64,000 nt of DNA, from positions 7,626 through 71,625 of the forward strand of contig JBKDBG010000017.1 of the NCBI GenBank assembly GCA_046314755.1, written 5' to 3'. The position numbers and the translations under genes were made by a program. The DNA is from Bacteroidota bacterium (GTDB taxonomy: Bacteria; Bacteroidota; Bacteroidia; UKL13-3). Below are positions 877-22,600 of the stretch, piece after piece (positions within the stretch are counted from its first letter, which is position 1; every line of letters begins with the position of its first letter). Under the pieces are notes generated by a model. The model saw nothing but the letters and a program-made list of their open reading frames with translations. It was not told the DNA's origin and made no database searches.

Positions 877-3366
877 ATGTTCGATACTTATTTGGTTTTC
901 ATTACAATTTGTATATTTAACCAAAAATTAAACCACTTGAAAAACCCTTGCCTAAAATTATTGACAACAATTTTGTTGTTGTTTAGTACGCACATTGCGC
1001 TATCGCAAGATGTTGACATTGACTCATTAAACAGCGCATTACTGAATCATATCAATACCCAACGACAAACCGGTGGTGTTGAAGAAGTATTGAGCACACA
1101 AGTGTTAGAAAATGCCGCTCAAGACCAAGCCAATTATTGTGCAGAATTAAAAGCAGAAACCAACACCCAAAAAGAATTAAAGAAGAGCAATGCTTCGCTT
1201 CGTGTTACTTTTTATGGAGGAATAAAAGATGGTGTACCACAGGAAATTATTTTCGGTGAATCGATTAAAAACTCAAAGGGAATAGAATTGAGCACGGGAG
1301 ATTTATTGACCAAACTGATTAAAAAGCTGGATAAAACTGCCTTCAAAAAAATATATACCCGTCCCGATTTGTATTATGCAGGAATTCGAGGGTCATTTGA
1401 CCCAATTAGTGGAAAGGTTTATTTCTGTATTTTGTTTGGCGACATTAATATCATTAACAACACAGCTGCACACAGTAAAGAGTTAGATAAAAATTACACG
1501 GTAAAAACACATGCATTTCATTGGTGGCTTAGAAGAACCGGGTGTAAAATAAACTGTATTTTCGGAAAGTGTGATGAAGGAACTGTTTGTAATGCCTATG
1601 ATGATTTAAAAGAACTGTACAGCAAGGTTGATTTAGACAAGGGGTTTTACATAAAAGACAAAAAATTATTCTTGCGTGAGGAGTATAAAAAGTACTTTAT
1701 CAGTGAGGATCGAAATACCACCAAGTTAATTGCAGATAAAAACGACCGCTTGTTGATTTACATTATTGAAAAATCACAATTCCCATGCAACACTTCTTAC
1801 AATATTTCTGTAGGGGCAAGCACACAAGCCGGACTTGAAATTGGATTACGCCCCGTAACCCTAGCTCAATTAACAGCTAAAGGAGACTTAGCTGTTGACA
1901 AACTACCTGTAGGTTTTTCAGAGAATTTTGAAATTGGTATTAAAGTAGTGAAGTATTGTGATGAAAAAGTTAAATGCGAGGTTTATAATTTTTACGACAA
2001 ACTCAATCGACTAAAACCTTATTTCACACCGGTATCGTTTGAAACACTTCCATTGTTATTAGATACCCAAACAGCTAAAACACCGGAACCTTTTATTGAG
2101 GTAAAAACTTTAAACTGGACCATTCCGTTTGAGCGCAATAAATTTGATTACAAACAAGCAGATATTGCTCCTTTTATCGACAGCTTATCAGAACCAAAAT
2201 TTATTATCCAAGAAATTAAAATTACTGCCTATTCATCCATAGAAGGGGATTCGGTTAAAAATGCGGAACTTCAACAAAAACGTGCCTCAAGTATTGTTAA
2301 AGTATTGGAGCAACAGCAGGCAGGTACCAAAATTAAATACACGGTTAAACAAGGAAACGCTTGGGATATTTTTCGTAAACAAATTTTATTAACTAATTAT
2401 TATTACTTAGCCGACAGTAATCAAGCTTATGTTCGTCAACGATTAAACAGTGATACTTCTTTGCTTAAAAAGGTAGAGCACTTATTAGATCAAGAACGAT
2501 TTGCGACTATTGAAATGCGCGTTGCTTTTGATTTAAAAAAACTAAGTGAGGAAGATTACTGGATTTACAGAATACAAAAAGCGTTGGAAAAAAAAGACCT
2601 CAAACGTGCTTTAAACAATCAAACTGCTTTGATTAAACTATACGAACAAGGTAAAGTAAAATATGAAAAGTTGATGGCGCTGGAAATTCCGAACGACAAA
2701 AAATACATCGCCCTGCTCAACAACAAATATTATTACATTAAAGATATAAAAGAGCAGTTAAGCAAGTTTGAAGAGCTCAGAAATTTAGACCCGAACAACC
2801 CGATTATTAAGTATAATTATTTGGCCATCAAACTAAATGCCGTTAACAATTTAACTGCTGATGCACGAAGAGAGGAATTACAAATTCTGTCTTCCCTATT
2901 TGGGCAACTTACCGCAACAGCCATTCCGGTTAAATTGTATAACACCCTAAGATCAAGATTTCACCCGATTGTTAATGACAACAGAAAGTCGAAAAAAGCC
3001 GAGTCGTACAGCAATATCAAGGATTTATCAAAGAACAGCCCGGTATTGGAATCCATCTTTTTGGCTGATTATTATGCCGAGCAAAAACGATTTGATTTAG
3101 CAGCACAAATTTTATTTGATCATTACAACGAAATAAGCAATGATGATGCTGCCTTATGCAAAGAGTATTGTTTACGCATGTTATATTACGGAAAAGCAAG
3201 CAAGCTTGAGGCTTTTGACAAATTGTATTACAATGTGTTTAAGAAATTACAAGCAACAAACCCGGCTGTTTTTTGTGAGTTGTTTGATCAATCAAAAGTA
3301 TCGTTTAAGTTCTTTGAAAATTTACACATCAAAAAACTTTATTGTGATGCCTGCGGAAGCAAGTAG
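877..3366 (+). CDS. Hypothetical secreted multi-domain protein with an N-terminal CAP/SCP/PR1-like (YkwD-like) domain, a Cys-rich segment, a degenerate OmpA-like segment and a helical-repeat C-terminal region
   Basis: An 829-aa ORF. The signal-peptide-like stretch KLLTTILLLFSTHIALSQ has no Met just before it, so the real start may be the TTG at 937-939. LNSALLNHINTQRQTGGVEEVL...ENAAQDQANYCA follows the CAP-domain pattern. ITAYSSIEGDSVKNAELQQKRASSIVKVL resembles the OmpA-C-like motif. The function is unknown. Confidence 0.6.
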   Translation: MFDTYLVFITICIFNQKLNHLKNPCLKLLTTILLLFSTHIALSQDVDIDSLNSALLNHINTQRQTGGVEEVLSTQVLENAAQDQANYCAELKAETNTQKELKKSNASLRVTFYGGIKDGVPQEIIFGESIKNSKGIELSTGDLLTKLIKKLDKTAFKKIYTRPDLYYAGIRGSFDPISGKVYFCILFGDINIINNTAAHSKELDKNYTVKTHAFHWWLRRTGCKINCIFGKCDEGTVCNAYDDLKELYSKVDLDKGFYIKDKKLFLREEYKKYFISEDRNTTKLIADKNDRLLIYIIEKSQFPCNTSYNISVGASTQAGLEIGLRPVTLAQLTAKGDLAVDKLPVGFSENFEIGIKVVKYCDEKVKCEVYNFYDKLNRLKPYFTPVSFETLPLLLDTQTAKTPEPFIEVKTLNWTIPFERNKFDYKQADIAPFIDSLSEPKFIIQEIKITAYSSIEGDSVKNAELQQKRASSIVKVLEQQQAGTKIKYTVKQGNAWDIFRKQILLTNYYYLADSNQAYVRQRLNSDTSLLKKVEHLLDQERFATIEMRVAFDLKKLSEEDYWIYRIQKALEKKDLKRALNNQTALIKLYEQGKVKYEKLMALEIPNDKKYIALLNNKYYYIKDIKEQLSKFEELRNLDPNNPIIKYNYLAIKLNAVNNLTADARREELQILSSLFGQLTATAIPVKLYNTLRSRFHPIVNDNRKSKKAESYSNIKDLSKNSPVLESIFLADYYAEQKRFDLAAQILFDHYNEISNDDAALCKEYCLRMLYYGKASKLEAFDKLYYNVFKKLQATNPAVFCELFDQSKVSFKFFENLHIKKLYCDACGSK

Positions 3367-3367
3367 T

Positions 3368-6300
3368 TTAGTTACCAAGTGACCTGGCTAACTTAATTGG
3401 GTTCAAATTATTTAGCCTTAAGGTAAAAGTTATTCTTTGCAAATAACTGTTATGAAAAACATCCCAATTATTGGTTGTAAGTTGATCGGCAAATAGCGGA
3501 AAGTTCACTTGAAAAACATCATCAATCGCCCAAATGCTTAAACCTGTTACATAATAAATGGTTGCTTCATAAATTGTAACACTTGTTCCTGTATTGGCAT
3601 TGGTTTGGGTTGTTTTGCTGTTAACCGCAGCAGCATCAACAAATACACGTATAGGTAATATACCCGGAATTGATGAGGTAAAGTTAGCCGTTAACAACCA
3701 ACTATCAGTTGCGGCCAAGCTTTGCGCATAAGCCCTAAAACCTGAAGTACCCGGCATAATTTGCTGGGTAAATAAGTTGCTTACATTTCCCCTTCCAAAT
3801 TGCGATTCATCATACAAATAATCGTAATAACCATTGTTTTCTGCCAAACGGAACAACACACGCTCATCCTTACCCGACTCCGGTTTGGTTAAAAACGTTC
3901 CCCCGAATACACGAACATTTAACCCTTTGTTTCTTTCACCATAATCAATAGCAGTATTATATTCTGCCCATATCTTTTGAAAAGAACTTTGCGCTTGTCC
4001 GTATTGATAATGAACACTCCAACTTGTGGGATTTAACTTTCGCTTTTGGGTTGAAGTAAAACGAATATCGGTATAGGCAAATGCTTTATCAAAATCACTC
4101 AACAAGGCGCGTGTAAACCTGTTTTCTTGCACCAATACATAACGAATATCCAATTGGTTTTTAGCATCGGTACGTGGTTGTTTTTGATTGAAAATAAAGG
4201 TTATGCGTGGTGCAACTTTCTCATAAGATTTCAAACGATTATCTAAGTCAATGCCACTTCCTGTATATACTCCGTTGCTGTCAAAAAAGTCTTTTGCAAT
4301 ATCACCTTGTAAAGCAAAACGCGCACCCTCTATACCTACTTGTATCTCTCTAAAATAGGCTTGAGGAAAAAAGCGATGCTGTAAGCTAAACGATCCGGTT
4401 AAATCTTTTGTGCCAAAAGCAAACATTGGTGCGACCCAAAATTCAGTATTTTTTCGAGGAAGCATACTGTTATAGAACGCAACACCCAACATGGTTTTGT
4501 TGTACATGTTTGCCCCAATAATAGGGCTGTAGAATATTTGGGTTTTATTCGGCTTTTCGAGATTAACAACAGGAGAAAACTCAAGCGGCATAAGCGTTTT
4601 AAACAATCCCTTAGTTCGTGCATAGTTGTTTCCTCGGTAAACATCCAACGATTGTTCAAGGGCATCTATTCGAATATTCGAGATGTTTTTACCGTAAAAA
4701 CTTATAGATTGTTCTTTTTTAAATCCTGCCAATTTTTGCTCTGCAACCAAAGAGGAATCCGCAAATGCTTGTACATAAACCGGAGCCAAAACACCGCCCT
4801 TATTTTTTAATTTTACATGAACACTATCTCCGCTTTTTTGAACCTTACAAATGGCTACGTCAGGTATTTTTGACGAACCCATCAAATCATCAAAAAACCA
4901 ACTTAAATCTTCTCCGGTAAATGTTTTTGCATGATCCATAAAATCTCCGGGAAGCGGATGTTTAAATTTCCATCTTTCGTAATAGCTTTTCATCATCGCA
5001 TCAAATCTTTCGGTGCCTAAATGTTGTTGCAATTGTAAAAATGCCAATGAAGCCTTACTATAAATGATGGTACCATAGTTTAATGAAGTAAATGCTTCCG
5101 AATTTAACAATGAAGGTTGATCGGTTCGATTACGTGCACTTACCAAGTATTGCAACTGTAACAAACCGAATGATGATTCCGTTAACTGTTCAATAGAAAA
5201 TGATTTTGTTTTTTTGAGATTTGCTAGGCCCGGATGCTTGGTAAATAAAGGCTTGTAGGTGCTTCTTGCTTCATAATAGGTGTTGATACTTTCATCCATC
5301 CATGGATAACTACGCTCGTTGCTGCCTAAAATACCATAAAACCAATTGTGTCCAAGTTCATGTACAATTACTTGCCTTGACACTTCTGTAATATTGGTGA
5401 TAGTTGGGTATTCCATACCTCCACCAGCTTTTAAAGGAGTAACCACAACTGTAGCATGCGCATAAGGATAATTGCCTACATTTTTACTGTAAAATTGAAC
5501 AGCAGAATCTACCCAATGCACAACAGATTCTTTCGGACAAACTTGATAGACCCATGTCATCACTTTATGCCCATTATCCAATTGCACCTCATGGCGTTCT
5601 ATTTGAAATCTTTTATCGGCAAACCAGGCGAAATCATGCACACTGTCTTGCACAAAATGTAAAGTTTTTGTGTTGGAAGAAGAGGCAGGAAATTGAGTGT
5701 TGCAACTAGGGACATTTTCAAAATTTTTGTTGCTCAATTCAAACAGTTTATTCCATTCATCCTCGTTTTGCAGGTTACCTGTTGCTGCCACTAAATAATT
5801 TTCAGGTAATGTAATATTCACCTCAAATCGGCCAAACTCGCTGTAAAACTCACCTTGGTCCAAATAAGGCATAGGGTTCCATCCATTCACATCATAAACA
5901 GCAGGCTTTGGGTACCATTGGGTAATGCAATATTGTTGACCATTGTGGCCCAGTCGTGAAAACACTTCCGGAATTTTAACCCTAAAACTGGTAGTAATCA
6001 TTATTTGTTCACCGGGGTTTAGTGGTTTGTTTAATGTAAGTTTTATGATTTCATAACCATTCACAAAGGCGGTTTTTACTTTTTCGCCATTTATCTTGAA
6101 GTTTAAAGAATCAATTCGACCTCTTTGATCATCCTTAGCATAATAAAAATCCATGTTGCCGTTTTCTACTTGTTGTTTCGCAAATGGGGTTTCATTGTTT
6201 AAGTAGGCGTTAGGCCAAAGGTGAAAGAAAATTTCTTTAAGTGTATCCGGTGAATTGTTATAATAACGTAAGTCTTCAAAACCATGCAATACATGTTTGA

Positions 6301-6424
6301 TATCATCCAACCGAACATCTATAGTGTAATCAACCCTTTGTTGCCAAGGGGCTTGACGAATGAGTTGAGCCTGAGCAGCGATAAAACCTACACAAAACAA
6401 TAAAACACCAAGTATTTTTCTCAT
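3368..6424 (-). CDS. M1-family zinc metallopeptidase (aminopeptidase N-like) with a signal peptide and a long C-terminal extension
   Basis: A 1018-aa ORF. The N-terminal signal peptide is MRKILGVLLFCVGFIAAQAQ. The gluzincin motif is VHELGHNWFYGILGSNERSYPWMDESINTYYE (HEXXH followed by a downstream E). The roughly 450-aa C-terminal region has no recognisable family. Confidence 0.85.
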   Translation of the reverse strand: MRKILGVLLFCVGFIAAQAQLIRQAPWQQRVDYTIDVRLDDIKHVLHGFEDLRYYNNSPDTLKEIFFHLWPNAYLNNETPFAKQQVENGNMDFYYAKDDQRGRIDSLNFKINGEKVKTAFVNGYEIIKLTLNKPLNPGEQIMITTSFRVKIPEVFSRLGHNGQQYCITQWYPKPAVYDVNGWNPMPYLDQGEFYSEFGRFEVNITLPENYLVAATGNLQNEDEWNKLFELSNKNFENVPSCNTQFPASSSNTKTLHFVQDSVHDFAWFADKRFQIERHEVQLDNGHKVMTWVYQVCPKESVVHWVDSAVQFYSKNVGNYPYAHATVVVTPLKAGGGMEYPTITNITEVSRQVIVHELGHNWFYGILGSNERSYPWMDESINTYYEARSTYKPLFTKHPGLANLKKTKSFSIEQLTESSFGLLQLQYLVSARNRTDQPSLLNSEAFTSLNYGTIIYSKASLAFLQLQQHLGTERFDAMMKSYYERWKFKHPLPGDFMDHAKTFTGEDLSWFFDDLMGSSKIPDVAICKVQKSGDSVHVKLKNKGGVLAPVYVQAFADSSLVAEQKLAGFKKEQSISFYGKNISNIRIDALEQSLDVYRGNNYARTKGLFKTLMPLEFSPVVNLEKPNKTQIFYSPIIGANMYNKTMLGVAFYNSMLPRKNTEFWVAPMFAFGTKDLTGSFSLQHRFFPQAYFREIQVGIEGARFALQGDIAKDFFDSNGVYTGSGIDLDNRLKSYEKVAPRITFIFNQKQPRTDAKNQLDIRYVLVQENRFTRALLSDFDKAFAYTDIRFTSTQKRKLNPTSWSVHYQYGQAQSSFQKIWAEYNTAIDYGERNKGLNVRVFGGTFLTKPESGKDERVLFRLAENNGYYDYLYDESQFGRGNVSNLFTQQIMPGTSGFRAYAQSLAATDSWLLTANFTSSIPGILPIRVFVDAAAVNSKTTQTNANTGTSVTIYEATIYYVTGLSIWAIDDVFQVNFPLFADQLTTNNWDVFHNSYLQRITFTLRLNNLNPIKLARSLGN

Positions 6425-6521
6425 GTGCGCAATATACTTTAAAAGCCATTTTTTAAATATGGTTTTTAATAAACGGTGGTTTTACGAGGTTGTTGTGTTG
6501 AACGGAGGGTTAGGGAATGTG

Positions 6522-9500
6522 TTACCTTCTGTTTTTAAGTTGCTCAGCCTCTTGCAGCGTAACCCTGCGTCCGTTGTAGTAAGCACTAATAAAGGCATCA
6601 TTAAAGCCGAGCGAGCTTAATAAACGTAAGGTAGCGATACAATCGGCTTCGTTATTAAACTGACCACTTAAAACCCGCACAAAATCATTGTCAATAATTT
6701 CGTACATAATATCCGGTATTCCTCTAAACGCCTCTGGGTTTAGCGGTTTTCTAAATGCGCCTAGCTGAACGGTATACACCAATTCGCGAACATTGTTTAC
6801 GTCAATTTTATCTTTTAAGAAATTATCAAGGGCCTTATCGGTAATCACCGGCCTTGCCCTTCTTACAATAATTGGTTCATCTGGAATTACAACAGGTGGT
6901 GTATTAGTATTGGGTTGAAGGTTGCTCTGAGTGGCCGATTTATTGAGAGATGAAGCCGTATCTATAATTGCCCCGGATGAAGAGAACCTTTTAACACTCA
7001 CTTTTCTCCTCTTTTCAACAATGTTAAATGTCACAAAAATGCTTTCTACATCTTTATCTATTTTTACCTGAATATTGTTTTGCAATAAGGTATATCGATT
7101 ACCCAAAACCTTTTCATCAAAAATAATTTTGTAATCACCATAAGGAGCATAAAAAACAAATGACCCATCGTTCTCTGTAAGCGTATGAATTTCTTTTCCG
7201 TTCTGCGCAGTAATTTTTATCCCACCCAATTCGGGCAGAAACGAAATTTTCTCCGAAAGCACATCTTTATCAACGTGCACCTTGCCATAAATTTTCACCC
7301 CCTTTACAAAAGGCACTGCTACATATTCCTTGTCTAAATAATTTTTAGCCACCAAAATGGTATCCGCAACATTCGGAAAATACCCATTTAACTCTTCCAA
7401 ACTAAACGCTCCAAATTCGTACAAACCACCCGGCATATTTATCAATTTTGCTCTTCCTTTCTCATTGGTAAGCACGTCCCATCCGTTTACTCTTATCACA
7501 ATATTTTCAAGCAAATACTCATCATTATCTTTTACATGATTTCCATTCACATCAACAAAGGCAATAAAATTAGCGGTATAATATCTGCTATTTGAAAACG
7601 GATTTTTTATGCCAAATACTTTTCGAATACCAACATTTGCCATAACATTTTGTGAACTTGTTACGCCTGATTCCTCAGAAACGCCAGTAAGGCCCGACTG
7701 ATTAAAAAACACTACGTTGTTGTTGTTCTTCGTAAAATAGTATCCGAGTTGTAACCTAAAGCGCCAATTATTATCAGTGTAATAATTTAACTCCGGCATA
7801 TAGCTAAACGTTTGGCGCTCATTTTGGCTATAATAAGTGTAGCCTACAAACTGTTGCAAGATAAAATGTGTGTTTCTAAATTGGTATTGGTGATTTAGTG
7901 CGGCAGAAAAAATTTGTGGAGTAACAATAACCGGAGTATTGCCAAGACTAACTGTTCCAATATTGCCATATGCATATCTAATATTAGCCGAGTAAGTTCT
8001 ATATCTGGCCATGCTAAAAAACTGTACAAAGAAATAATCTCTTTGCGGAGTAAGAAACAGCGGACGGTTATATCCTGCCAGCAATGATGCTGAAACCAGC
8101 TGGTTCTTTTCGTAATCAAAACTACCCACATTAAAACTAACCCCTCTGGAATGAACCTCTTTTAAATTCACACTTGAGATGTTATAAAATCCGCCCGTAG
8201 AGAAGAAGGCTTGGCCAACATTTTTATTTACCGATACCTGATTATTGACATTTAAATAGCGATTGGTTGGAAGAAACACATTTCCTGTAAAGATATCGCT
8301 GCGTTGATTGTAGTTATGAATAAGCGTAATGGTTGTTTTCTCATTGTATTTGAAATAAATATTGGCATTTCCTATGTAGGTTTCTCCATCGTTTTGAAAA
8401 GATGATTTAGGAGAGAAATAAGAAAAGGAAAGATTAGATGTTAAGTTGTTTTTTCTTAAAAAAGTACCGGAGTGATTTACTCGAGCCAAATAGCCGGAGT
8501 TAGATGGCCCTGCAGAAGGGATATGATTTGCAATAATGATTCCAAATGAAATACTTTGCGTAGAGCCAAACCCTTGACTCATACTTAATCCATAGTAATC
8601 AGTTATAAAATTCGCACTCAACTGATTTGATCTGGTAAATCCGGAACTGATTTGTGTTCGTTTTAATCGAATGTTGTGAGATACACCATAGCCTTCTGAA
8701 GAATATCCTAATACGTTAGGGCCACCAAAAAGTAGTAATGGATTTTTGGTATAAAAACCACCAATACTTTGTGTTTTTGATATTCGATACATGCCACCTA
8801 TACCTCTTCCGGGAACGGCAAAAGTAGCATTGCTTTCGGGCGCACCACCAATATCTCCTGTAATAATGGAGTACTTTTTATCATACAATCCAACAAAAAA
8901 GCTCGAGTACCTTAAGTAATTATCTGTGTAATAATTCGTGCTGAAATTGGTTTGGAATTGATACATTAAATTAGCACCGTTATCCAACATGGTATTGCCT
9001 CTTAATAACACATTCACAAGAGGAGATCCGGTTGCCAAACTGTTAATATTTGCGTCTAAAATAAGTGGAAAATAAGCATAACCGAATGGTGTTATTTTTA
9101 CTTCGTTCCCCAACCGAACAAAGTCAACCTTTTTGCTTTTTTGTAAAGCACGGCTTCCAAGAGCCTTCGACTCACTTGTTTTTATATAAATAGAGTAGGT
9201 TTTAGTTTCGTCTTCAGTTATTGGGCGATGTGATTCTGTATCAATAAAACGCAAATTTCTTACACCTTCTACCGTACTAACCATATAATGAAACATCGTA
9301 TCGCCTCCAACGCCTAAATTAATATCTTTAAATGTGTTGGAAACAATTTTTCCTGAAGTATCGGTTACAGAAAGTTGTGCCCTATAATTTTCTACAGAAA
9401 CGGAAAGCGGCTGTTCTTCATTTCCTAAGTTGAACACGCCAAAGCTTAAGTCTGTGGTGGTTTGTTTGTTTTTGAAATATATTTTTCCGGGATTGAGCAA

Positions 9501-9983
9501 GTTAATATCCCAATTCCCTATTCGTTTACGATAGGCGAAGAAACTGGATGTTCCAATTACATTACCCGATTCCTCACTTACGTATATGGTGATTAGATAT
9601 TTAGTGTTTCCTTTGATTTTTCCTTGGGGAATTATGTTAACCGGAAGGTATAATTCTTCTTGTGGGCCAATGGTATAAGTTCTTTCAGAAAAGGCGGTTC
9701 TTTTCCACTCGGGAGGAGCTGAAACAGATATTTTAATTCTTCGTTCAGTCCCTTCTAGGTTTAATAATATGATGGTTTTAGAAATGGGTTCTCCAGGTAT
9801 AATTTGTTCCGTGGTATCATCCATAAAAAAAGCTACCAATGTGGTGCTTGACTGTTTAAATAATTTATTATTGATAAGGGTATCACTTGTTTGAGCGCTT
9901 ACCGTATGGTAAACAAACAAACAACTGCACCAAATGATGAGTTGTAAAAGAAGATTGCGATATGAGGTTAGGGGGTGGGTCAA
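6522..9983 (-). CDS. Large outer-membrane protein with usher-like architecture: signal peptide, an N-terminal beta-sandwich region, a roughly 650-aa Y/F/G-rich beta-barrel-like core, two carboxypeptidase-regulatory-like Ig domains, an S/T/N/P linker and a C-terminal SPOR domain
   Basis: A 1153-aa ORF with signal peptide ...FVYHTVSAQ. The middle region is dominated by alternating aromatic/small-residue beta-strand patterns (for example FSYFSPKSSFQNDGETYIGNANIYFKYNE). IKITAQNGKEIHTLTENDGSFVFYAPYGDYKIIF fits the CarboxypepD_reg-like pattern. The C-terminus VYTVQLGAFRKPLNPEAFRGIPDIMYEIIDNDFVRVLSGQFNNEADCIATLRLL fits a SPOR repeat. The usher assignment is an inference from domain order and not from recognised sequence identity. 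Confidence 0.65.
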   Translation of the reverse strand: MTHPLTSYRNLLLQLIIWCSCLFVYHTVSAQTSDTLINNKLFKQSSTTLVAFFMDDTTEQIIPGEPISKTIILLNLEGTERRIKISVSAPPEWKRTAFSERTYTIGPQEELYLPVNIIPQGKIKGNTKYLITIYVSEESGNVIGTSSFFAYRKRIGNWDINLLNPGKIYFKNKQTTTDLSFGVFNLGNEEQPLSVSVENYRAQLSVTDTSGKIVSNTFKDINLGVGGDTMFHYMVSTVEGVRNLRFIDTESHRPITEDETKTYSIYIKTSESKALGSRALQKSKKVDFVRLGNEVKITPFGYAYFPLILDANINSLATGSPLVNVLLRGNTMLDNGANLMYQFQTNFSTNYYTDNYLRYSSFFVGLYDKKYSIITGDIGGAPESNATFAVPGRGIGGMYRISKTQSIGGFYTKNPLLLFGGPNVLGYSSEGYGVSHNIRLKRTQISSGFTRSNQLSANFITDYYGLSMSQGFGSTQSISFGIIIANHIPSAGPSNSGYLARVNHSGTFLRKNNLTSNLSFSYFSPKSSFQNDGETYIGNANIYFKYNEKTTITLIHNYNQRSDIFTGNVFLPTNRYLNVNNQVSVNKNVGQAFFSTGGFYNISSVNLKEVHSRGVSFNVGSFDYEKNQLVSASLLAGYNRPLFLTPQRDYFFVQFFSMARYRTYSANIRYAYGNIGTVSLGNTPVIVTPQIFSAALNHQYQFRNTHFILQQFVGYTYYSQNERQTFSYMPELNYYTDNNWRFRLQLGYYFTKNNNNVVFFNQSGLTGVSEESGVTSSQNVMANVGIRKVFGIKNPFSNSRYYTANFIAFVDVNGNHVKDNDEYLLENIVIRVNGWDVLTNEKGRAKLINMPGGLYEFGAFSLEELNGYFPNVADTILVAKNYLDKEYVAVPFVKGVKIYGKVHVDKDVLSEKISFLPELGGIKITAQNGKEIHTLTENDGSFVFYAPYGDYKIIFDEKVLGNRYTLLQNNIQVKIDKDVESIFVTFNIVEKRRKVSVKRFSSSGAIIDTASSLNKSATQSNLQPNTNTPPVVIPDEPIIVRRARPVITDKALDNFLKDKIDVNNVRELVYTVQLGAFRKPLNPEAFRGIPDIMYEIIDNDFVRVLSGQFNNEADCIATLRLLSSLGFNDAFISAYYNGRRVTLQEAEQLKNRR

Positions 9984-9986
9984 ATA

Positions 9987-10631
9987 TTACAATCCTTCTC
10001 GAAGACAAAATTTCACATTAAGCAAGTAAACTCCCGGCTGTAAGTTTAAAGTAGGACGAATGCGGTAATCAACAGTAAAACTATACTCGCCATAATTAGT
10101 TATGTGCGAACCCGGTCTATTCACATTCGTTCCCGTACAAGTTCCACCGGCATTACTAACTCCGGGGCTATTTACGATGGGAATGTTTGTTGCAGTTGAT
10201 GGTAATGAAACGTAATTTGTACCTGTTAGTGAGGTATTACATGTATTGCGAAAACGCATTTCCAATAAACTCACTTGTGGCATTGGTGATGAAGTAGTGC
10301 CATACATCATAATGTTTTCCCACTCTGTTGCAGGAGATGCATTATTATCTAAATGTACACTTAAAAACCAACGGCAATCAGAAGGAGGAGCTGCATTTTC
10401 AGCAACAATAATTTTATACACCGATTGGCCGAATAGATTTACGCCTCGCAAATAATCGCCAAAAGAATAAAAAGTGAAGTTTATTACAGGCTCCCCTGTA
10501 AGTTCAATTTGAGATCCGGCACCGATACCACTGCAATTAGCTGTAGTAATGGGGGTACAAGAGGTTTGTGCTTTTATGCATAATGTGCTACTTAGTAAAC
10601 ACAATATGCCAATGAATATCTTGCCGTTCAT
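9987..10631 (-). CDS. Small secreted T/S/N/G-rich protein, a candidate fibre subunit and paralog of the next gene
   Basis: A 214-aa ORF with signal peptide MNGKIFIGILCLLSSTLCIKAQ. The C-terminal motif EYSFTVDYRIRPTLNLQPGVYLLNVKF is shared with the 290-aa neighbour (SDYRYVIDYRILPNLP...PGVYTMYVKY). It lies 3 bp upstream of the 1153-aa gene. Confidence 0.6.
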   Translation of the reverse strand: MNGKIFIGILCLLSSTLCIKAQTSCTPITTANCSGIGAGSQIELTGEPVINFTFYSFGDYLRGVNLFGQSVYKIIVAENAAPPSDCRWFLSVHLDNNASPATEWENIMMYGTTSSPMPQVSLLEMRFRNTCNTSLTGTNYVSLPSTATNIPIVNSPGVSNAGGTCTGTNVNRPGSHITNYGEYSFTVDYRIRPTLNLQPGVYLLNVKFCLREGL

Positions 10632-10685
10632 AAGTAAATTTTAAAAGCGGGCACTTAATGTGCCCGCTTTAATTTTGCTTTTTGA

Positions 10686-11558
10686 CTATTGGTCTTGAGC
10701 TAAAATATATTTTACATACATGGTGTATACACCAGGCTGAGCGTAAGTTGCGCCATCACCGGTTAATGTAGTTGCACCATCAGCAGCAATCATATATGGA
10801 GCTGTTGCATTGGTAGCGTTAACAGGGTTTGGAGCTACACGCATGTGGGCAGGAAAAGTTACCGGTAAGTTTGGTAAAATACGGTAATCAATTACATAAC
10901 GATAGTCTGACGTGTTTGCGTTAGAGTTTAGGATGTAACTACCACCTGCAATACTACATCCGGCACCTGTTCCTGTTCCACCTGCAATATACTTCTCAGA
11001 AGTACCTGCAGCGTTGGTTGAGGTAGGTGAAGTGTAAGGAGTAGTTGGGTTCGGGCAGTAAATATTGTTGTTACCCGGAGTCATGGTAGAGGTAGCTGCG
11101 GTTGTGATTGGTTGGAATACCGTAGAATAATCACTAGAAGCGGCAACTGTAGTTAAACAAGTTCCGATTGATGGATTACCGGGGAACTGTCTTAATTCAA
11201 GTGCAGTTAGTGGAATATCATCAGTTGCTCCGGTTGCTGAAGCGTACTCAACCGGATTATCCCATAAGAAGTTACCTTCTTGTCCTTGTGATAAACCTGC
11301 TGCCCATAAGTCGAAACTTACAGTAGCACTTACCTTAAGTATTGTAGCACCATACTTTACAATACCGGCATAGTACTCGTTAATTTCGTCAAATGTAAAG
11401 TCAAGTTGATCCGGACCTTCCATTTTTAATTGAAGAATAGGCTGTAAATCCATTGTAATGGTTACATTCTTCTCATCTTGCAACTGAGCAAAAGCTCCGT
11501 TAGTAAGCACCACAGCTCCCAGAGCCATGAATACTTTTCTGAGTTTAGTTGTTTTCAT
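10686..11558 (-). CDS. Small secreted T/S/N/G-rich protein, a candidate fibre subunit and paralog of the 214-aa protein
   Basis: A 290-aa ORF with signal peptide MKTTKLRKVFMALGAVVLTNGAFAQ. After the signal peptide there is an alternating hydrophobic stretch, VTITMDLQPILQLKM. The C-terminal DYRILP...PGVY motif is shared with the 214-aa protein. Confidence 0.6.
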   Translation of the reverse strand: MKTTKLRKVFMALGAVVLTNGAFAQLQDEKNVTITMDLQPILQLKMEGPDQLDFTFDEINEYYAGIVKYGATILKVSATVSFDLWAAGLSQGQEGNFLWDNPVEYASATGATDDIPLTALELRQFPGNPSIGTCLTTVAASSDYSTVFQPITTAATSTMTPGNNNIYCPNPTTPYTSPTSTNAAGTSEKYIAGGTGTGAGCSIAGGSYILNSNANTSDYRYVIDYRILPNLPVTFPAHMRVAPNPVNATNATAPYMIAADGATTLTGDGATYAQPGVYTMYVKYILAQDQ

Positions 11559-11578
11559 AAATTTTTAATTATGAGTTG

Positions 11579-12484
11579 TTATTTTTTGGGTTTTTGTTGT
11601 TTAGTTAAATTGCCAATTTCAAATTCAAGTTCTGCCGCTTCCAAAGTTTCGTCACTTCCAAAATCAAGAATTACTGAGGCTATATATTTTCCGGGGGGCA
11701 ATTCACCGGGTAAGGTAAAATCAAAGTTTCTTTCCTTTTTAGGGAATATGGTAAATTGCTTTGATGACAGTTTTGTTTTATATCCATTGTTAATATTCGT
11801 AAGTTCAATAAACATACGTGAAAAGCCTAAACCATCACCGGTATTAAAGGCCGTTGCATAAATTACACCTTTACTGTTTTGTGTGGTATCAGCAGAACCA
11901 ACAAATTTCAACTTGGTAAGTTCTAACTTATTTACTTTTACGTTTGGCGGATTTTGGAACATGTACACAGCAAAACCAAATGTTGGAATAATACCCATGG
12001 CAATGGCTTTTCCATCGGCATTTTTGGGTGCAATGGCTTGTCGCTCCTTCATCTGATCAATCATTAGCATGGTCCAGCCGGCTCGGTAACAATTTGCCGA
12101 ATCAGGCACAGCCAGGGTAATGGCAATCTTTTTGGCTTCACCCGGCTTCAACTCAACAAATGATGGTGAAATAGAAATCCACTTAGAAATGCCGTACTCG
12201 TGTTGCACATTGGCAGGCAGTTGTGTCACGGCCCCCCTATCACTCATGTCATAATCAGTTACACTAATCTTAAACTTTTCAGGATTTTTAGTATCATTAG
12301 TAATGGTTACATATTTTGTATCTGAATAACCCGGTATGGTAGTAAATTTTACCATAGAAGGCGCTACAGCCACGCCTAAATTGGTTATTGAATCTTTCAA
12401 TAATGGTTGTTGTGACTGCTGCGCAAACGCAATTAAAAATGAAAAAACGCTTACTGTTAATACAAGGAGTTTCCTAATGAACAT
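11579..12484 (-). CDS. Periplasmic two-beta-sandwich-domain protein, a candidate PapD-like pilus chaperone
   Basis: A 301-aa ORF with signal peptide ...FLIAFAQQ. The first domain, GVAVAPSMVKFTTIPGYSDTKYVTITNDTKNPEKFKISV...PSFVELKPGEAKKIAITLAVPD, follows the PapD/MSP-like strand pattern (vfPp..p.eq.ltv.N....p..f...v...P.f..L.Pge...i.i). The second domain, FTIFPKKERNFDFTLPGELPPGKYIASVILDF, is also beta-rich. It is the first gene of the four-gene operon, with a 20-bp gap to the next gene. The chaperone call is an inference. Confidence 0.45.
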   Translation of the reverse strand: MFIRKLLVLTVSVFSFLIAFAQQSQQPLLKDSITNLGVAVAPSMVKFTTIPGYSDTKYVTITNDTKNPEKFKISVTDYDMSDRGAVTQLPANVQHEYGISKWISISPSFVELKPGEAKKIAITLAVPDSANCYRAGWTMLMIDQMKERQAIAPKNADGKAIAMGIIPTFGFAVYMFQNPPNVKVNKLELTKLKFVGSADTTQNSKGVIYATAFNTGDGLGFSRMFIELTNINNGYKTKLSSKQFTIFPKKERNFDFTLPGELPPGKYIASVILDFGSDETLEAAELEFEIGNLTKQQKPKK

Positions 12485-12794
12485 GTTATTTTTTTATTTG
12501 AATAGCTTTTTATCAATATTAGATAAATATACAAGGGACTCAAATTAAAATAATTTAATACACCGCGGCTTTTCTTATTTTTCGGCACAAAAAGGCTAAA
12601 ACCGTATAATTAAGTGTACAAAATGACGGTTAACTCAATGACATTTGACAATAATTAACTTAAATTTTCTAAAAAATTAATCCCCTTCAGAGGCATCAGC
12701 TTGTCTTGTCAATTACAATTATTGATTAATCATAAACATTTTGCATTGATAATTACCGTATTTATTAAGGCGCGGTGCGTTATTTGTGCCTAAG

Positions 12795-12829
12795 TTTTAG
12801 CAATGGAGCACTTTTTGACGTTATATTTG
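12795..12829 (+). promoter_or_regulatory. Candidate Bacteroidetes sigma-A-type promoter (-7 element TAtaTTTG) for the TPR gene
   Basis: TATATTTG at 12822-12829 matches the Bacteroidetes -7 consensus TAnnTTTG, 25 nt upstream of the ATG at 12854. A T-rich stretch (AGTTTTAG) lies about 22 nt further upstream, but the -33 TTG is not clean. Confidence 0.3.
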
Positions 12830-12853
12830 TTTATCATATAATTATTAAAGGTT

Positions 12854-14266
12854 ATGGATGGTGATGATTTTTTGGATGAAGAAGTGCAACCGGTACTTCA
12901 GCGTTATGAAAAGATGCTGAAAAATAAAACGAAGGAATTTTTTGAAGCTGAAGAGCTTGAAGACATATGTGATTATTATCTGCGGAAAGATAAATTAAAG
13001 AAGGCCCTTGAGGTGGTTTATTTTGCAGAGGAGTTCTATCCATTATATGTAGGCTTTATGATTCAAAAGGCCGAAATATTTGCAGGGCTAGGTAAATTAG
13101 ATGATGCCATAGAGGTATTAGACAAAGCAGAACTGTATGAACCCAACAACGAAGACTTATTCCTAATTCGCGGAGAGGTGTTTCTGTTTAAAAACCAAAT
13201 TGATTTTGCCGAAGAATGTTTTGAGCGAGCACTTGATTTAGCCTCAGACAAGGTAACCATGTTGTTTGATATTGCTTACGCTTACGAGGAAGAAGACAAG
13301 CAAGATTTTGCACACAAATATTTTAAAATGGTGTTGGAAGAGGAAGAAGAAAATGAAGAAGCACACTTTGCTATTGCACAATTGTTTGATGAACAAGGCG
13401 AATTTGACAAGGCGGTTGAATACTTAAATAAACTTATTGATGTGGATCCTTACAACAACACAGCATGGTTTAATCTTGGTGTTACCTACAGCAAAATGAG
13501 CCTGTTTGAAAAAGCTGTTGAAGCCTTCGACTTTTGTATTACCATTGATGAAGAATTTGATGGTGCACATTTTCACAAGGCTAATGCATTGGTGGAACTA
13601 GATGAATACGAAAAAGCCATTGAGGTGTATTTGGAATGCGTTAAACATTTTGGCCCTGATGCCATAACGTATTGCAACTTGGCCAGTTGTTACGAACAAA
13701 ACAACGAACATTTAAAGGCCAGAGAATATTACAAAATGGCCACCAAAATCAATCCAAACATTGCCGAAGCATGGTTTGGAATTGGATTAACCTATGACAA
13801 AGAAGATGCGGTTAAACAAGCCATTCCATACTTTAAACGCGCAATATTACTTGATGCAGAAAACACAGATTTTTTATTCGCACTTGCAGAAGCAGAATAT
13901 AAAATTGGTAAGGTTGATGAAGCGGTTACCATCTATGAAGAAATTTTAGAAATCAACCCCTATTTATACGAGGCTTGGCTCGATTGGTCGTATGTGCTGT
14001 TTGTTGAACAACGCACACAAGAGGCGATTGCGCTACTTTTTAACGCCTTAAAACATTTTCCAGAACAACATCAAATTTACTATCGTTTATGTTGTTATTT
14101 ATTTGATACGGGGAAAACAAAATCAGCATTGGAGTATCTGGAAAAAGCACTTAGCATAAATGCAGATGATAGTTTTTTGATTTACGAAATCATGCCAGAA
14201 TTACAACACGTTACTGACATTACAAATACCATAGCAGCATATAAAAACAACAATGAAAAACTTTAA
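12854..14266 (+). CDS. Tetratricopeptide (TPR) repeat protein
   Basis: A 470-aa ORF with multiple 34-residue TPR-like repeats (EEAHFAIAQLFDEQGEFDKAVEYLNKLIDVDPYNNTAWFNLGVTYSKMSLFEKAVEAFDFCITIDEE... and AEAWFGIGLTYDKEDAVKQAIPYFKRAILLDAEN). It is acidic and has no signal peptide. Confidence 0.85.
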   Translation: MDGDDFLDEEVQPVLQRYEKMLKNKTKEFFEAEELEDICDYYLRKDKLKKALEVVYFAEEFYPLYVGFMIQKAEIFAGLGKLDDAIEVLDKAELYEPNNEDLFLIRGEVFLFKNQIDFAEECFERALDLASDKVTMLFDIAYAYEEEDKQDFAHKYFKMVLEEEEENEEAHFAIAQLFDEQGEFDKAVEYLNKLIDVDPYNNTAWFNLGVTYSKMSLFEKAVEAFDFCITIDEEFDGAHFHKANALVELDEYEKAIEVYLECVKHFGPDAITYCNLASCYEQNNEHLKAREYYKMATKINPNIAEAWFGIGLTYDKEDAVKQAIPYFKRAILLDAENTDFLFALAEAEYKIGKVDEAVTIYEEILEINPYLYEAWLDWSYVLFVEQRTQEAIALLFNALKHFPEQHQIYYRLCCYLFDTGKTKSALEYLEKALSINADDSFLIYEIMPELQHVTDITNTIAAYKNNNEKL

Positions 14267-15044
14267 ACTCAAACAAATTCCTGAAAGAACAATCAAGCCA
14301 CGTAAAAATGGGATTACCATGGTTATGGATAAAGGTTTAAGCGTAAGTGAAGTGGCCAATTTTATTGAGGCAAACAGCGATTATGTTGATTTGGTTAAGT
14401 TCGGTTTTGGCACATCCATGGTTACACCGCGACTTGACGAAAAAATTAAGCTTTATAAAGAGGCCGGCATTGGTGTTTACTTTGGCGGAACATTATTTGA
14501 AGCTTTTATTGTACGCAATCAGTACGATGATTTTTTATCGCTAATTGACAAGTACCAACTTGAGTATGTTGAAGTATCGGACGGTTCCATTGAAATGCCA
14601 CATGAGATCAAATTGGAATACATCAATAAACTCAGCAAACATGCAATAGTATTAAGTGAAGTTGGAAGTAAAGATGTAGAAAAAATTATTCCTCCATACC
14701 AATGGATTGAATTAATGAAAGCAGAGCTAAAAGCCGGAGCGTGGAAAGTAATTGCTGAAGCGCGTGAGGCAGGTAATGTGGGTGTTTACCGAAGCAGTGG
14801 TGAGGTACGCGAAGGGTTGGTACAAGAGATTTTAACAAAAATTGATGGTGAAAAAATTATTTGGGAAGCACCACAAAAAGCACAACAAACCTACTTTATC
14901 AAGTTGGTTGATACAAACGTAAACTTAGGAAATATCGCCCCGAATGATGTTATTCCTTTAGAAACCTTACGTTTAGGATTAAGAAGTGATACTTTTAATT
15001 TCTTCTTGAACAAAAGCGCTAAATTCATTCCAAAAAAGAAGTAA
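14253..15044 (+). CDS. ComA-like (2R)-phospho-3-sulfolactate synthase family protein (PF02679-type)
   Basis: A 263-aa ORF. MVMDKGL...DYVDLVKFGFGTS...GIGVYFGGTLFE...EYVEVSDGS matches the conserved blocks of ComA/YitD as I recall them. The start overlaps the TPR gene stop by 14 nt. Confidence 0.7.
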   Translation: MKNFKLKQIPERTIKPRKNGITMVMDKGLSVSEVANFIEANSDYVDLVKFGFGTSMVTPRLDEKIKLYKEAGIGVYFGGTLFEAFIVRNQYDDFLSLIDKYQLEYVEVSDGSIEMPHEIKLEYINKLSKHAIVLSEVGSKDVEKIIPPYQWIELMKAELKAGAWKVIAEAREAGNVGVYRSSGEVREGLVQEILTKIDGEKIIWEAPQKAQQTYFIKLVDTNVNLGNIAPNDVIPLETLRLGLRSDTFNFFLNKSAKFIPKKK

Positions 15045-19622: not shown

Positions 19623-22600
19623 TTATTTATGCAATACAATTTTGGTTAAAACCATTTCACCATTAACCATTGATTGTAACACATACATGCCCTGTTCGAA
19701 ATCGTTCATGTTCAATTTAATTTCACCGGCATCAACCCACGAATTTGAATGCCATTTTTTCAATAACTTTCCTTGTAAATCAAACAAACAGATTTCATCA
19801 ACCTTTGCCTCTTTACTGGTTTCAATCAACAAATAATCTTGTGCGGGATTAGGATAAATACGTACAGGTAATGAAAGTGTTTTTTGAACAACGCGTACAC
19901 CCAGATAAGCGTATTCCCCATTCATGTCTTCTTGGATGAGTCGATAATAAATAAGTTGGTGTTGAAGCGTTGCACCTACATCATCATACGAATATTGTTT
20001 TGCTGCGTAACTGTTTCCGTTGGCTTTAATAAACGTAAGTGGAGTAAAGTTAATTCCATCCAAAGACTTTTCAATTAGAAAACCTTTGTTGTTTATTTCT
20101 TGGGCAGTTGCCCAACGAATTACTGCATCATCCTCTCGCAACTTCACGTCAAATGAAATTAGTTTTACCGGTAAAGGATTACTGATGGCCTCATCACAGC
20201 CCATATATGGTTTAATCAATGGGCGAGTATGATTATCGATATCCGTTTGAATATTTGCAAGCCGAATTCCTGCTAAAAGGGTATCACCTAAAGAAGCTCC
20301 TGCTAACCTTAAACGCCAAGCACTTTGAAAGGTTACAACCTTACTTTGCGATTGAAAGTTTGTTGCGGTTGCAGTTGAAAATGCAGATAAGGTGGCATAA
20401 TCAATTGCATTAGCATTTCCTAAAATGGTATTGGTTCCATTCACATATAAAAGGTTATGATTCATCACAGGATTGCCGCCCAACCAAAAAAACACAGCAT
20501 AATGTTTACCTCCGGATGCACTTGTGTTACTGCGTTCGTTGATAAAAATATTATTGAACACCGAGTCTTGTGCATCTCCTATTCCTGAATAAAAAGCTGT
20601 TGAGTTATTTGATCCCGATGAGCTTACATTCTGTCCTGATATTCTTACCGTATTGTAAAATATTTTATTGGCAGCTCCGGATTTTTGTATGCCAATGTAT
20701 GCAATTGATCCTGTGTTCGCATTTGAAAGACTATCTGTTCCTAATGCGATTTCATTGTTGTGTACAAATATACCGGGACCAAAAGTTGAAACGCCAATTG
20801 CTCTTGCTTCGGTGTTGTTGATTGGCCCGATGCCTAGAATGCTGTTTCTTGCCACTTCAATAAAATTAGTACTGCCTCCCGAAACTTGAATACCCGCAGC
20901 ATTTCCCGAAGGCGCCCCAATGGTATTTATTTGTGTTACAGTATTGTTAGTCACCAAACGTTGGCCACTTCCTGAGGCAGATAGAAAAATACCGTTTATA
21001 AAAGTAAAACTTGTGCTGATTAAAGCAGGGTTTGACGGGTTATGACTCAATTGTGTGATGCGGTTATTTCGGATTATTGCAGGGGCATTTCCTGAAACAA
21101 ATATTCCATACAATGTTTTAGATTGATGTAAAGCATACCGTAAGTTTCTAATGGTATTATTTTCAATGGTTACATGTTGCCCATTGTTCACCGTAAACTC
21201 AATGCCACATAAATCACCGTTACATAGTTGGTTAATACTAGCCGCAGTTTGATTTGAACCAATAATATTATTAGTAACACTAAATACACCTGAGCTGGCC
21301 GAAAACCTTATACCATAAAAAGAAAGCAAGCCACCTCCGGAAACCTGTATCGCTCCGATTTTATTTTGATTGATGAGAATGGAGTCAAGCGCTGTACCTA
21401 GAGATGCACCAATATTAATTCCGCTAAATGCTGCAACACCAACATTGTTTACATAATTAAATTGAATACTTGCTACTCCGGTATCAGCACCTATTGTGTT
21501 TCCGGTTAATTCTGCCTTGCCGTTTAAAACAGCAATAAAAGCATGGTTGCCGTTGTTGAACATGGTAGAAAAACTTATACGCCTAAACGTATTATTACGA
21601 ACGGCCACACCGGCATTTGCTGTACTTAACTGAAGAAGTTGGTATGTAACCGTACCATCAAACGAAGTGTTTTGCGTACCACCACAATAGGCCGCACTGC
21701 CTCCAAAAAAGTTATTCGAGATATTAGCAAAGCCTGCAGAAGCATAGCTGATAAACGAAAAGTTGCTCGAATGGCTGTATGTGAGGTTTTTGTAAAAACT
21801 GTTTCCGGTAATGGCTAGATTGGCGTTGGTATTATCCACAAAAATTCCGCAGTTCAGTGGGCTCACAATTTCATTATTGGTAATCATATTTCCGGTTGAA
21901 AGCACGTTGGCCGGCCCCGTTGAACCTGATGCGGAAATACACGTTGCAGGTAAATTTGATGTATTGAGAGCACCAATGTAACAACTGTCGATTATGTTAT
22001 TGTTATTTCCTGTGCTTATTCTGTTGCCAAACTCTACAATTCCGTCATTATTAAATGTTGTGTTCCCATAAACAAAACAATTTTGTAATCGGTTAAATGA
22101 AGCGTCATTTGCAAACAACACCGCAGGGTCACTTGATGTATTTCTGATGGTGATTCTTCTGCCTGCCTGTGTAGTCGTATCCGCGCCATTAACAGAAATA
22201 TACCTTGAACCGTTAAAATAAATATTGGCTGGAGTTGCAGAGCCAATGACGGTTGCTGTAACACCATTTGCAGGACGAATTTGTATGTTGTTGACAGCAC
22301 TTACTCCTTGTATTAGTGATGAAAATGCTATAGGAAATGTTTCGGCAGGAGTGGTGTAAGTTGTTTGTGTTAATAACAACGTAACCGGACCGGAAACCCC
22401 TCTTTGGTTTACATCATTTACTGCTGCCGTTAACGTAGTATAATTTCCTCCTGCACCTACTCGATAAACACCCGACATTGGAGGGCCAACAATGGCAAAA
22501 CGAAACGGAGTGCTTGGAGGTGCCGTAAAACTATCCCAAGTGATGCTGCCAAAACCGGCAGAAGGAAGTGCCGCATAATTCCCCAAACTATCAGTTGCTG

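Follow-up and report, generated by a model that had tools for sequence, protein, structure and literature searches.

Wall-binding modules are carried by several bacterial envelope machines, among them the AMIN domain of the PilQ secretin, the LysM of TsaP and FimV, the OmpA_C-like module of type IX secretion system (T9SS) PorE, and MotB; in all of these the module tethers or positions an outer-membrane (OM) or trans-envelope machine. SPOR domains, otherwise found on division proteins and a lytic transglycosylase, are so divergent that pairwise identity among characterised examples stays below 20% (10.1101/2022.07.01.498525). One from the Bacteroidota, that of C. hutchinsonii CHU2221, has an affinity of about 0.8 uM for denuded glycans. 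TLP-1 pili, imaged by cryo-electron microscopy (cryo-EM) from pond water, are 8-nm tubular filaments assembled by donor-strand exchange: protomer n+4 donates its N-terminal strand, and this makes the Ig-like fold of protomer n complete. They have been put forward as uncharacterised pili of bacteria (PMC11494351). The CryoSeek authors found no match to the TLP-1 sequence in their own metagenome and mass spectrometry data, named a sequence from a 'Flavobacteriales bacterium' as the nearest public one, and described no operon, host or machinery (PMC11494351). Here we describe a stretch of 64,000 nucleotides (nt) from a Bacteroidota bacterium of the UKL13-3 lineage (the window; assembly GCA_046314755.1, contig JBKDBG010000017.1, positions 7,626 to 71,625), in which the minus-strand open reading frame (ORF) 6522-9983 probably encodes the usher-like OM assembly or secretion platform of a Bacteroidota pilus cassette, tethered to the cell wall by a C-terminal SPOR tail. 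A homologue of the TLP-1 pilin is encoded in the same cassette, and the locus appears to encode the biogenesis system that was missing for this orphan cryo-EM pilus.

The ORF starts with TTG, 4 nt past the stop codon of the gene upstream, and encodes a protein of 1153 amino acids (aa) whose C-terminus reads ...VYTVQLGAF...QLKNRR*. A preliminary description of the sequence had quoted a C-terminal peptide and assigned it to the SPOR family. The peptide is present as the last 85 aa of the protein (residues 1069-1153, nt 6525-6779, followed by a stop codon at 6522-6524); translation of 6522-6780 on the plus strand gives only stops, so the SPOR-like feature belongs to the minus strand. Scanned in isolation, the 85-aa tail has SPOR (PF05036) as its sole Pfam match (E=0.0027, 18.4 bits, profile positions 5-74 of 76), and together with its flanks it scores 15.7-17.3 bits. 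So weak a signal is expected, because characterised SPOR domains differ so far from one another. When family C-termini were scanned one by one, 8 of 11 matched Pfam SPOR (best E 2.1e-5); the SPOR-like module is kept in all 15 of the closest homologue clusters, down to 26% identity, and in one relative (L018) the same C-terminal position is taken by a canonical SPOR domain (44.2 bits, E 2.4e-11).

Structure prediction points the same way. An AlphaFold2 (AF2) model of the last 109 aa (predicted local distance difference test score, pLDDT, 85.5) has the b-a-b-b-a-b order of the ribonucleoprotein (RNP)-like SPOR fold, running b1-a1-b2-b3-a2-b4 with a short a1 (E25-34, H39-42, E48-52, E57-65, H68-80, E87-92), then an extra strand and helix. 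Searched against the PDB with Foldseek, this model had as its top match the SPOR domain of CwlC (1x60; probability 1.0, template modelling score 0.65 on the target), and DedD (6ztg), RlpA (6i05 and 6i09, the latter a glycan complex) and FtsN (1uta) also stood within the top 22. In FtsN, residues Q251, S254, W283, R285 and I313 are required for septal localisation, and the counterparts of Q251 and R285 in RlpA, Q270 and R309, contact N-acetylmuramic acid (PMC6895207). The five FtsN positions align with Q1073, A1076, F1101, R1103 and F1131 of the tail, all conserved or conservatively substituted; the pattern is closest to the Q/A/R/F of RlpA (Q270, A273, R309), and Q1073 is invariant across the family. 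The SPOR call stands above chance because conservation, predicted fold, functional residues and the position of the L018 domain all agree, and on the model the tail is a divergent SPOR-type domain with a shortened helix a1 and a strand-helix extension at its C-terminus. The S/T/N/P-rich flexible linker that the preliminary description placed before this domain is likewise evident in the sequence and has low pLDDT in the full-length model (25-31 over residues 1008-1065). Its length and composition differ among family members, while a short conserved 'ITDxxLDNFL' segment lies inside it, directly before the SPOR domain; an 'EKRRKvxvKxF' motif at residue ~1000 marks the end of the conserved family core.

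The tail varies in type across the family. A word-indexed homologue search returned 15 clusters only, and its repetition with a family profile added nothing; the real family size became visible with an index-free HMMER search, which gave 220 representatives at E<=1e-30. Among the 122 that were near full length, 60 had no tail, 52 a SPOR-like tail, three a LysM tail and seven a tail of another kind. Pfam recognised SPOR in 20 of 54 non-redundant tails (best E 4.3e-11) and LysM in three (best E 9.2e-40). A family-aware SPOR hidden Markov model (HMM) built from a mixed seed matched 59 of 73 tails and none of 730 shuffled controls; an HMM seeded from four E. coli SPOR domains only detected no tails, which fits the low identity among SPOR domains (<20%). 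Two or four tandem SPOR-like copies were found in seven tails (multi-copy platforms include P0113, P0114, P0119, P0121, P0125 and P0127), which suggests, from the sequences, a tuning of wall-binding avidity. Tail type must change at least 28 times on a neighbour-joining tree built from the core, against 40-47 times with shuffled labels, and the three LysM tails belong to three different clades. The stop codons of two tail-less members (L014, L017) were verified, and where a separate wall-binding gene was looked for near tail-less members, only housekeeping genes were found. Two other tail-less members, P0057 (1418 aa) and P0064 (1564 aa), have N-terminal extensions of ~430-570 aa, and their cores begin at residues 480 and 603. 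The same SPOR subtype is also encoded as small stand-alone proteins of secreted or lipoprotein type. As judged from these sequences, the C-terminus of the family is a site at which peptidoglycan-binding modules are optional and can be exchanged for one another; that SPOR and LysM can trade places there argues strongly, if indirectly, for a tail that is periplasmic and binds the wall. This exchange also strengthens the analogy to peptidoglycan-anchored secretion platforms that had been drawn from the sequence of the window. All named carrier genomes are from Bacteroidota, mostly freshwater metagenome-assembled genomes (MAGs), plus the cultured Wenyingzhuangia aestuarii DSM 105044, a carrier that makes the pathway experimentally accessible and whose platform is the tail-less L017.

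The body of the protein was also described beforehand as a large OM barrel or fibre platform, and modelling bears this out. A full-length AF2 model, built from a 16-sequence family alignment, predicts N-terminal beta-sandwiches over residues ~50-300, a barrel of ~26 long strands (pLDDT mostly 70-90), two C-terminal beta-sandwiches, the disordered linker and the SPOR domain, in that order. In a Foldseek search of the PDB with this model, FimD ranked first (E 3.2e-13, ~800 aligned columns) and PapC reached 8.5e-9; the top seven bacterial matches were all FimD or PapC, and TonB-dependent transporters, LptD and MtrB followed at 1e-6 or worse. A large OM barrel with beta-sandwich domains on either side is thus predicted by both AF2 and Foldseek, from a model of moderate confidence. 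Sequence methods gave only sub-threshold Ig-like and prealbumin-like matches at the two ends of the protein in Pfam, NCBIfam and PDB searches (SpaA or CarboxypepD_reg for the C-terminal sandwiches in 12-16 of 16 members), and searching the PDB with a profile of the whole family returned no match. The modelled protein is usher-like in architecture and no member of the Usher family. To our knowledge, the N- and C-termini of bacterial OM barrels studied so far are both periplasmic. The C-terminal domains of ushers are periplasmic as well, and an extracellular C-terminus is therefore unsupported.

The platform gene closes a set of four co-directional genes (Table 1). Wherever a related locus reaches far enough upstream, it contains these four in the same order, tail-less loci included, among relatives at 26-94% identity and between unrelated flanks. 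A rearranged order was seen in L010 (a MAG named 'uncultured Bacteroidia bacterium', 5224-13855), where the platform gene is followed downstream, at 11928-13855, by the genes for the chaperone-like protein and the major pilin. The 290-aa product of the second gene matches the TLP-1 chains 9ikk and 9ikj in the PDB with E 2.4e-33 alone and 1.3e-70 as a family profile. The homology covers the whole protomer (residues 27-287 against 3-235, 37.6% identity) including the donor strand, where 15 of 24 residues are identical. At only 38% identity, the pilin of the window and TLP-1a/TLP-1b do not come from the same organism; the Flavobacteriales origin of the nearest public TLP-1 sequence is consistent with the Bacteroidota-only range of the family found here. 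The 'TLP-2' of a 2025 CryoSeek preprint was set aside as a separate dipeptide glycofibril and not the 9ikk chain, for which PMC11494351 is the relevant paper. No report of a TLP-1 operon or of a SPOR-usher fusion was found in the literature searched.

The 214-aa product of the third gene is a paralogue of this pilin (hhalign probability 98.8%, E 5e-17 against the 290-aa family; PDB 9ikk, E 3e-5) with a different, cysteine-containing N-terminus, and from its sequence it is a candidate minor, tip or terminator subunit. In L011, L014 and L016, the gene at the minor-pilin position encodes a protein of 441-461 aa, about twice as long and weakly similar to the 214-aa protein, which may be a two-domain tip adhesin. 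The first gene encodes a 301-aa protein that is a candidate periplasmic chaperone by position and fold class; its family has sub-threshold matches to WxLIP_PGBD (13 of 13 members), MSP (7 of 13) and PapD_N (1 of 13). A conserved hydrophobic segment, MGIIPTFGFAVYMFQNPP, lies between its halves at residues ~160-180, with G164, F171 and Q177-P180 invariant; by analogy it may be a long edge strand like the G1 donor strand of PapD, or may interact with the membrane. The C-terminal half of the family profile (220-293) matched C2 domains of synaptotagmin-1 in the PDB (E 5.6e-6), probably a beta-sandwich resemblance, though unexpectedly strong for chance. All four cassette proteins have signal-peptide-like N-termini, and no T9SS sorting domain was found in the cassette pilins; pilins with a Sec signal and without a T9SS sorting domain need a dedicated exit through the OM.

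A mechanism can be proposed along the lines of the chaperone-usher pathway. The four proteins would be exported by Sec, as their N-termini suggest; the 301-aa protein would hold the pilins in the periplasm, and the barrel protein would polymerise and secrete them. Both termini of the platform would be periplasmic, as in classical ushers, and the disordered tether of ~65 residues would give the SPOR domain access to the peptidoglycan layer, where it would most likely bind peptide-free ('denuded') glycans and so pin the pilus base non-covalently to the wall. Most parsimoniously, the tail would anchor the pilus base both mechanically and in position. Relatives with LysM or with no tail make it an accessory that lies outside the catalytic mechanism, and the LysM substitution, together with the half of the family that has no tail, makes generic anchoring or stabilisation the most economical function.

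Compared with the classical systems, the predicted platform resembles the FimD and PapC ushers in having periplasmic beta-sandwich domains on either side of a large OM barrel, and its gene, as in chaperone-usher operons, is linked to genes for secreted donor-strand-exchange pilins and for an Ig-like protein in the chaperone position. Unlike FimD and PapC, it is found in Bacteroidota and is not detectably similar to them in sequence or profile; it has ~26 predicted strands against 24 in ushers, and no evident plug; and strand donation in the TLP-1 pilus is n+4, in contrast to the n+1 of classical ushers. It also bears a C-terminal peptidoglycan-binding tail, and we know of no such tail described for ushers, nor did the literature searched contain one. 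The tail itself shares its predicted SPOR fold with RlpA, FtsN, DamX, DedD, CwlC and CHU2221, and, as in FtsN, DamX and DedD, the domain is C-terminal and stands behind a disordered linker. In contrast to the other SPOR carriers, the protein that carries it here would be a pilus machine's integral OM barrel, and in contrast to PilQ, TsaP/FimV, PorE and MotB, the wall module is fused to an usher-like pore on a long tether and may be exchanged for LysM or be absent. The preliminary description had listed RlpA among inner-membrane or periplasmic SPOR proteins, which is incorrect: RlpA is an OM lipoprotein, and an OM-associated SPOR domain therefore has precedent. Its proposal that tethering an OM barrel to glycan strands is an unusual solution stands for the fusion to a pilus platform barrel, and is qualified by the RlpA precedent and by a tail that about half of the family does without.

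A broader reading can be held tentatively. The cassette would be a hitherto unrecognised, Bacteroidota-specific pathway of chaperone-usher type, unrelated in sequence to the classical one, that builds TLP-1-type pili with n+4 donation from a platform pinned by interchangeable SPOR or LysM modules. In species with SPOR, the present one included, the module might direct pili to division sites or new poles, or it might gather several platforms so that four chains come out side by side. By inference from the locus, the TLP-1 pilus gains a genetic address, a host phylum and candidate assembly machinery. The locus also points to usher-type pilus assembly in Bacteroidota, a phylum not known for it, with machinery too divergent for sequence methods; the known fimbriae of this phylum (type V, FimA/Mfa1) use a different mechanism. 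A swappable tail (SPOR, LysM or none) on a pilus pore offers a natural experiment on the need for wall anchoring, and it extends SPOR domains beyond cell-division proteins.

Several results weigh against a wall-tethered, usher-like platform, and some of them favour one of three alternatives. About half of the family has neither a tail nor an adjacent peptidoglycan-binding gene, so anchoring is dispensable. The tail could instead be a localisation device, for which denuded glycans at septa or new poles would place the platforms at mid-cell or at the poles. All characterised SPOR domains, CHU2221 of the Bacteroidota included, reach the division site via denuded glycans (PMC6895207), the glycan-contacting Q and R are conserved in the platform tail, and the two to four tandem SPOR-like domains of some relatives would raise avidity. 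However, LysM, which is not known as septum-specific, replaces SPOR in three clades, and with half of the family tail-less the common denominator is wall binding and not septal targeting; we consider a localisation device unlikely, though for SPOR-bearing species septal or polar placement is a serious alternative.

The evidence on the barrel is also mixed. The full-length model is of moderate confidence (pLDDT 66.8, predicted template modelling score 0.42), Pfam and NCBIfam scans of the 16 members gave no match to Usher (PF00577), and hhalign against FimD, SfmD and HtrE returned a probability of 0.3%, with no sequence relationship. No globular plug insertion of ~80 residues was seen in the AF2 secondary structure, and the 301-aa family, although collinear with FimC-type chaperones in hhalign, reached a probability of 1.7%, which is not significant. 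In addition, n+4 donation implies four parallel subunit chains, a geometry with no obvious fit to a single usher pore. The 1153-aa protein might thus be another kind of OM barrel, such as a transporter or an anchor for a surface layer or adhesin; linkage to pilin genes need not mean secretion, and TonB-dependent transporters, LptD and MtrB are in the Foldseek list too. Yet the E-values of the ushers are better than those of any other barrel class by 4-7 orders of magnitude, with alignments over nearly the full length, the four-gene synteny is strict over the whole identity range between unrelated flanks, and the pilins combine Sec signal peptides with the lack of a T9SS sorting domain, all of which make a barrel of another kind improbable, more so than a tail for localisation.

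As for the tail, its 18.4 bits lie below the Pfam SPOR gathering score of 21 bits, so that the profile recognises the isolated domain at a sub-threshold score, and scans of the full-length protein, in Pfam at E<=0.1 and in NCBIfam, did not find SPOR. Sequence searches of the PDB, with the domain as query or with its family profile, returned no SPOR entry (the sole matches, to the FSH receptor and gp37, were dismissed as chance-level), and the best Foldseek E-value was only 1.4e-2, with many unrelated b-a-b-b-a-b folds at similar values. That the tail shares an RNP- or ferredoxin-like fold only, with no peptidoglycan binding, and might serve to gate the pore, to bind the complex of chaperone and subunit or to contact the pilus, a reading to which the short helix a1 and the additional C-terminal strand and helix absent from classical SPOR domains also lend themselves, is the least probable of the three, since the only high-probability Foldseek matches are the four SPOR types with solved structures, the tail keeps the residues that are critical in FtsN and RlpA, canonical SPOR and LysM stand at the same position in relatives, and the stand-alone secreted or lipoprotein-type forms are those expected of a wall-binding module.

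Table 1. Parts of the predicted platform protein and its cassette partners, with positions in the window
Feature	Position	Strand	Description and basis
SPOR-like peptidoglycan-binding domain, C-terminal	6525..6782	-	Residues 1068-1153; Pfam SPOR, AF2, Foldseek, residue alignment
S/T/N/P-rich low-complexity linker	6783..6983	-	Residues ~1001-1067; predicted disordered (sequence, pLDDT)
Two C-terminal beta-sandwich domains (prealbumin/CarboxypepD_reg-like)	6984..7586	-	Residues ~800-1000; sub-threshold Pfam, AF2
Predicted outer-membrane beta-barrel	7605..9074	-	Residues ~304-793; ~26 long antiparallel strands; AF2, Foldseek
N-terminal Ig-like beta-sandwich domains	9084..9890	-	Residues about 32-300; weak FixG_C / NPCBM_assoc matches, AF2
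Signal-peptide-like N-terminus	9891..9983	-	Residues 1-31, ...LFVYHTVSA|Q; hydrophobic N-termini of homologues align
Pilin paralogue, 214 aa	9987..10631	-	Secreted, Cys-containing N-terminus; hhalign, PDB 9ikk, kept position
Major pilin, 290 aa	10686..11558	-	TLP-1 homologue; signal peptide, then conserved N-terminal donor strand NVTxTMDLQPxLQL
Chaperone-like protein, 301 aa	11579..12484	-	First in cassette; signal peptide, Ig-like; sub-threshold Pfam

A promoter and terminator scan 3' of the platform gene found nothing, with a tool whose range does not include Bacteroidota promoters. A gene 97 nt downstream of the platform gene, on the same strand (3368-6424), has a 1018-aa product with an M1 aminopeptidase domain (E 4e-12); in relatives this gene lies outside the conserved cassette. 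An 829-aa protein encoded on the plus strand (877-3366) has weak OmpA-family (E 0.002) and CAP-domain matches and may be another peptidoglycan-associated envelope protein near the cassette. Very large ORFs follow one another in a run (19623-27116 on the minus strand, and 27372-63935), with products of 2497, 3464, 1126, 704, 1326, 932, 901 and 1922 aa; the 2497-aa ORF ends in a T9SS C-terminal sorting domain, and the window itself encodes T9SS cargo. Finally, a clear homologue of phosphosulfolactate synthase (ComA; E 4e-90), a sulfonate-metabolism enzyme uncommon in bacteria, is encoded on the plus strand at 14253-15044.

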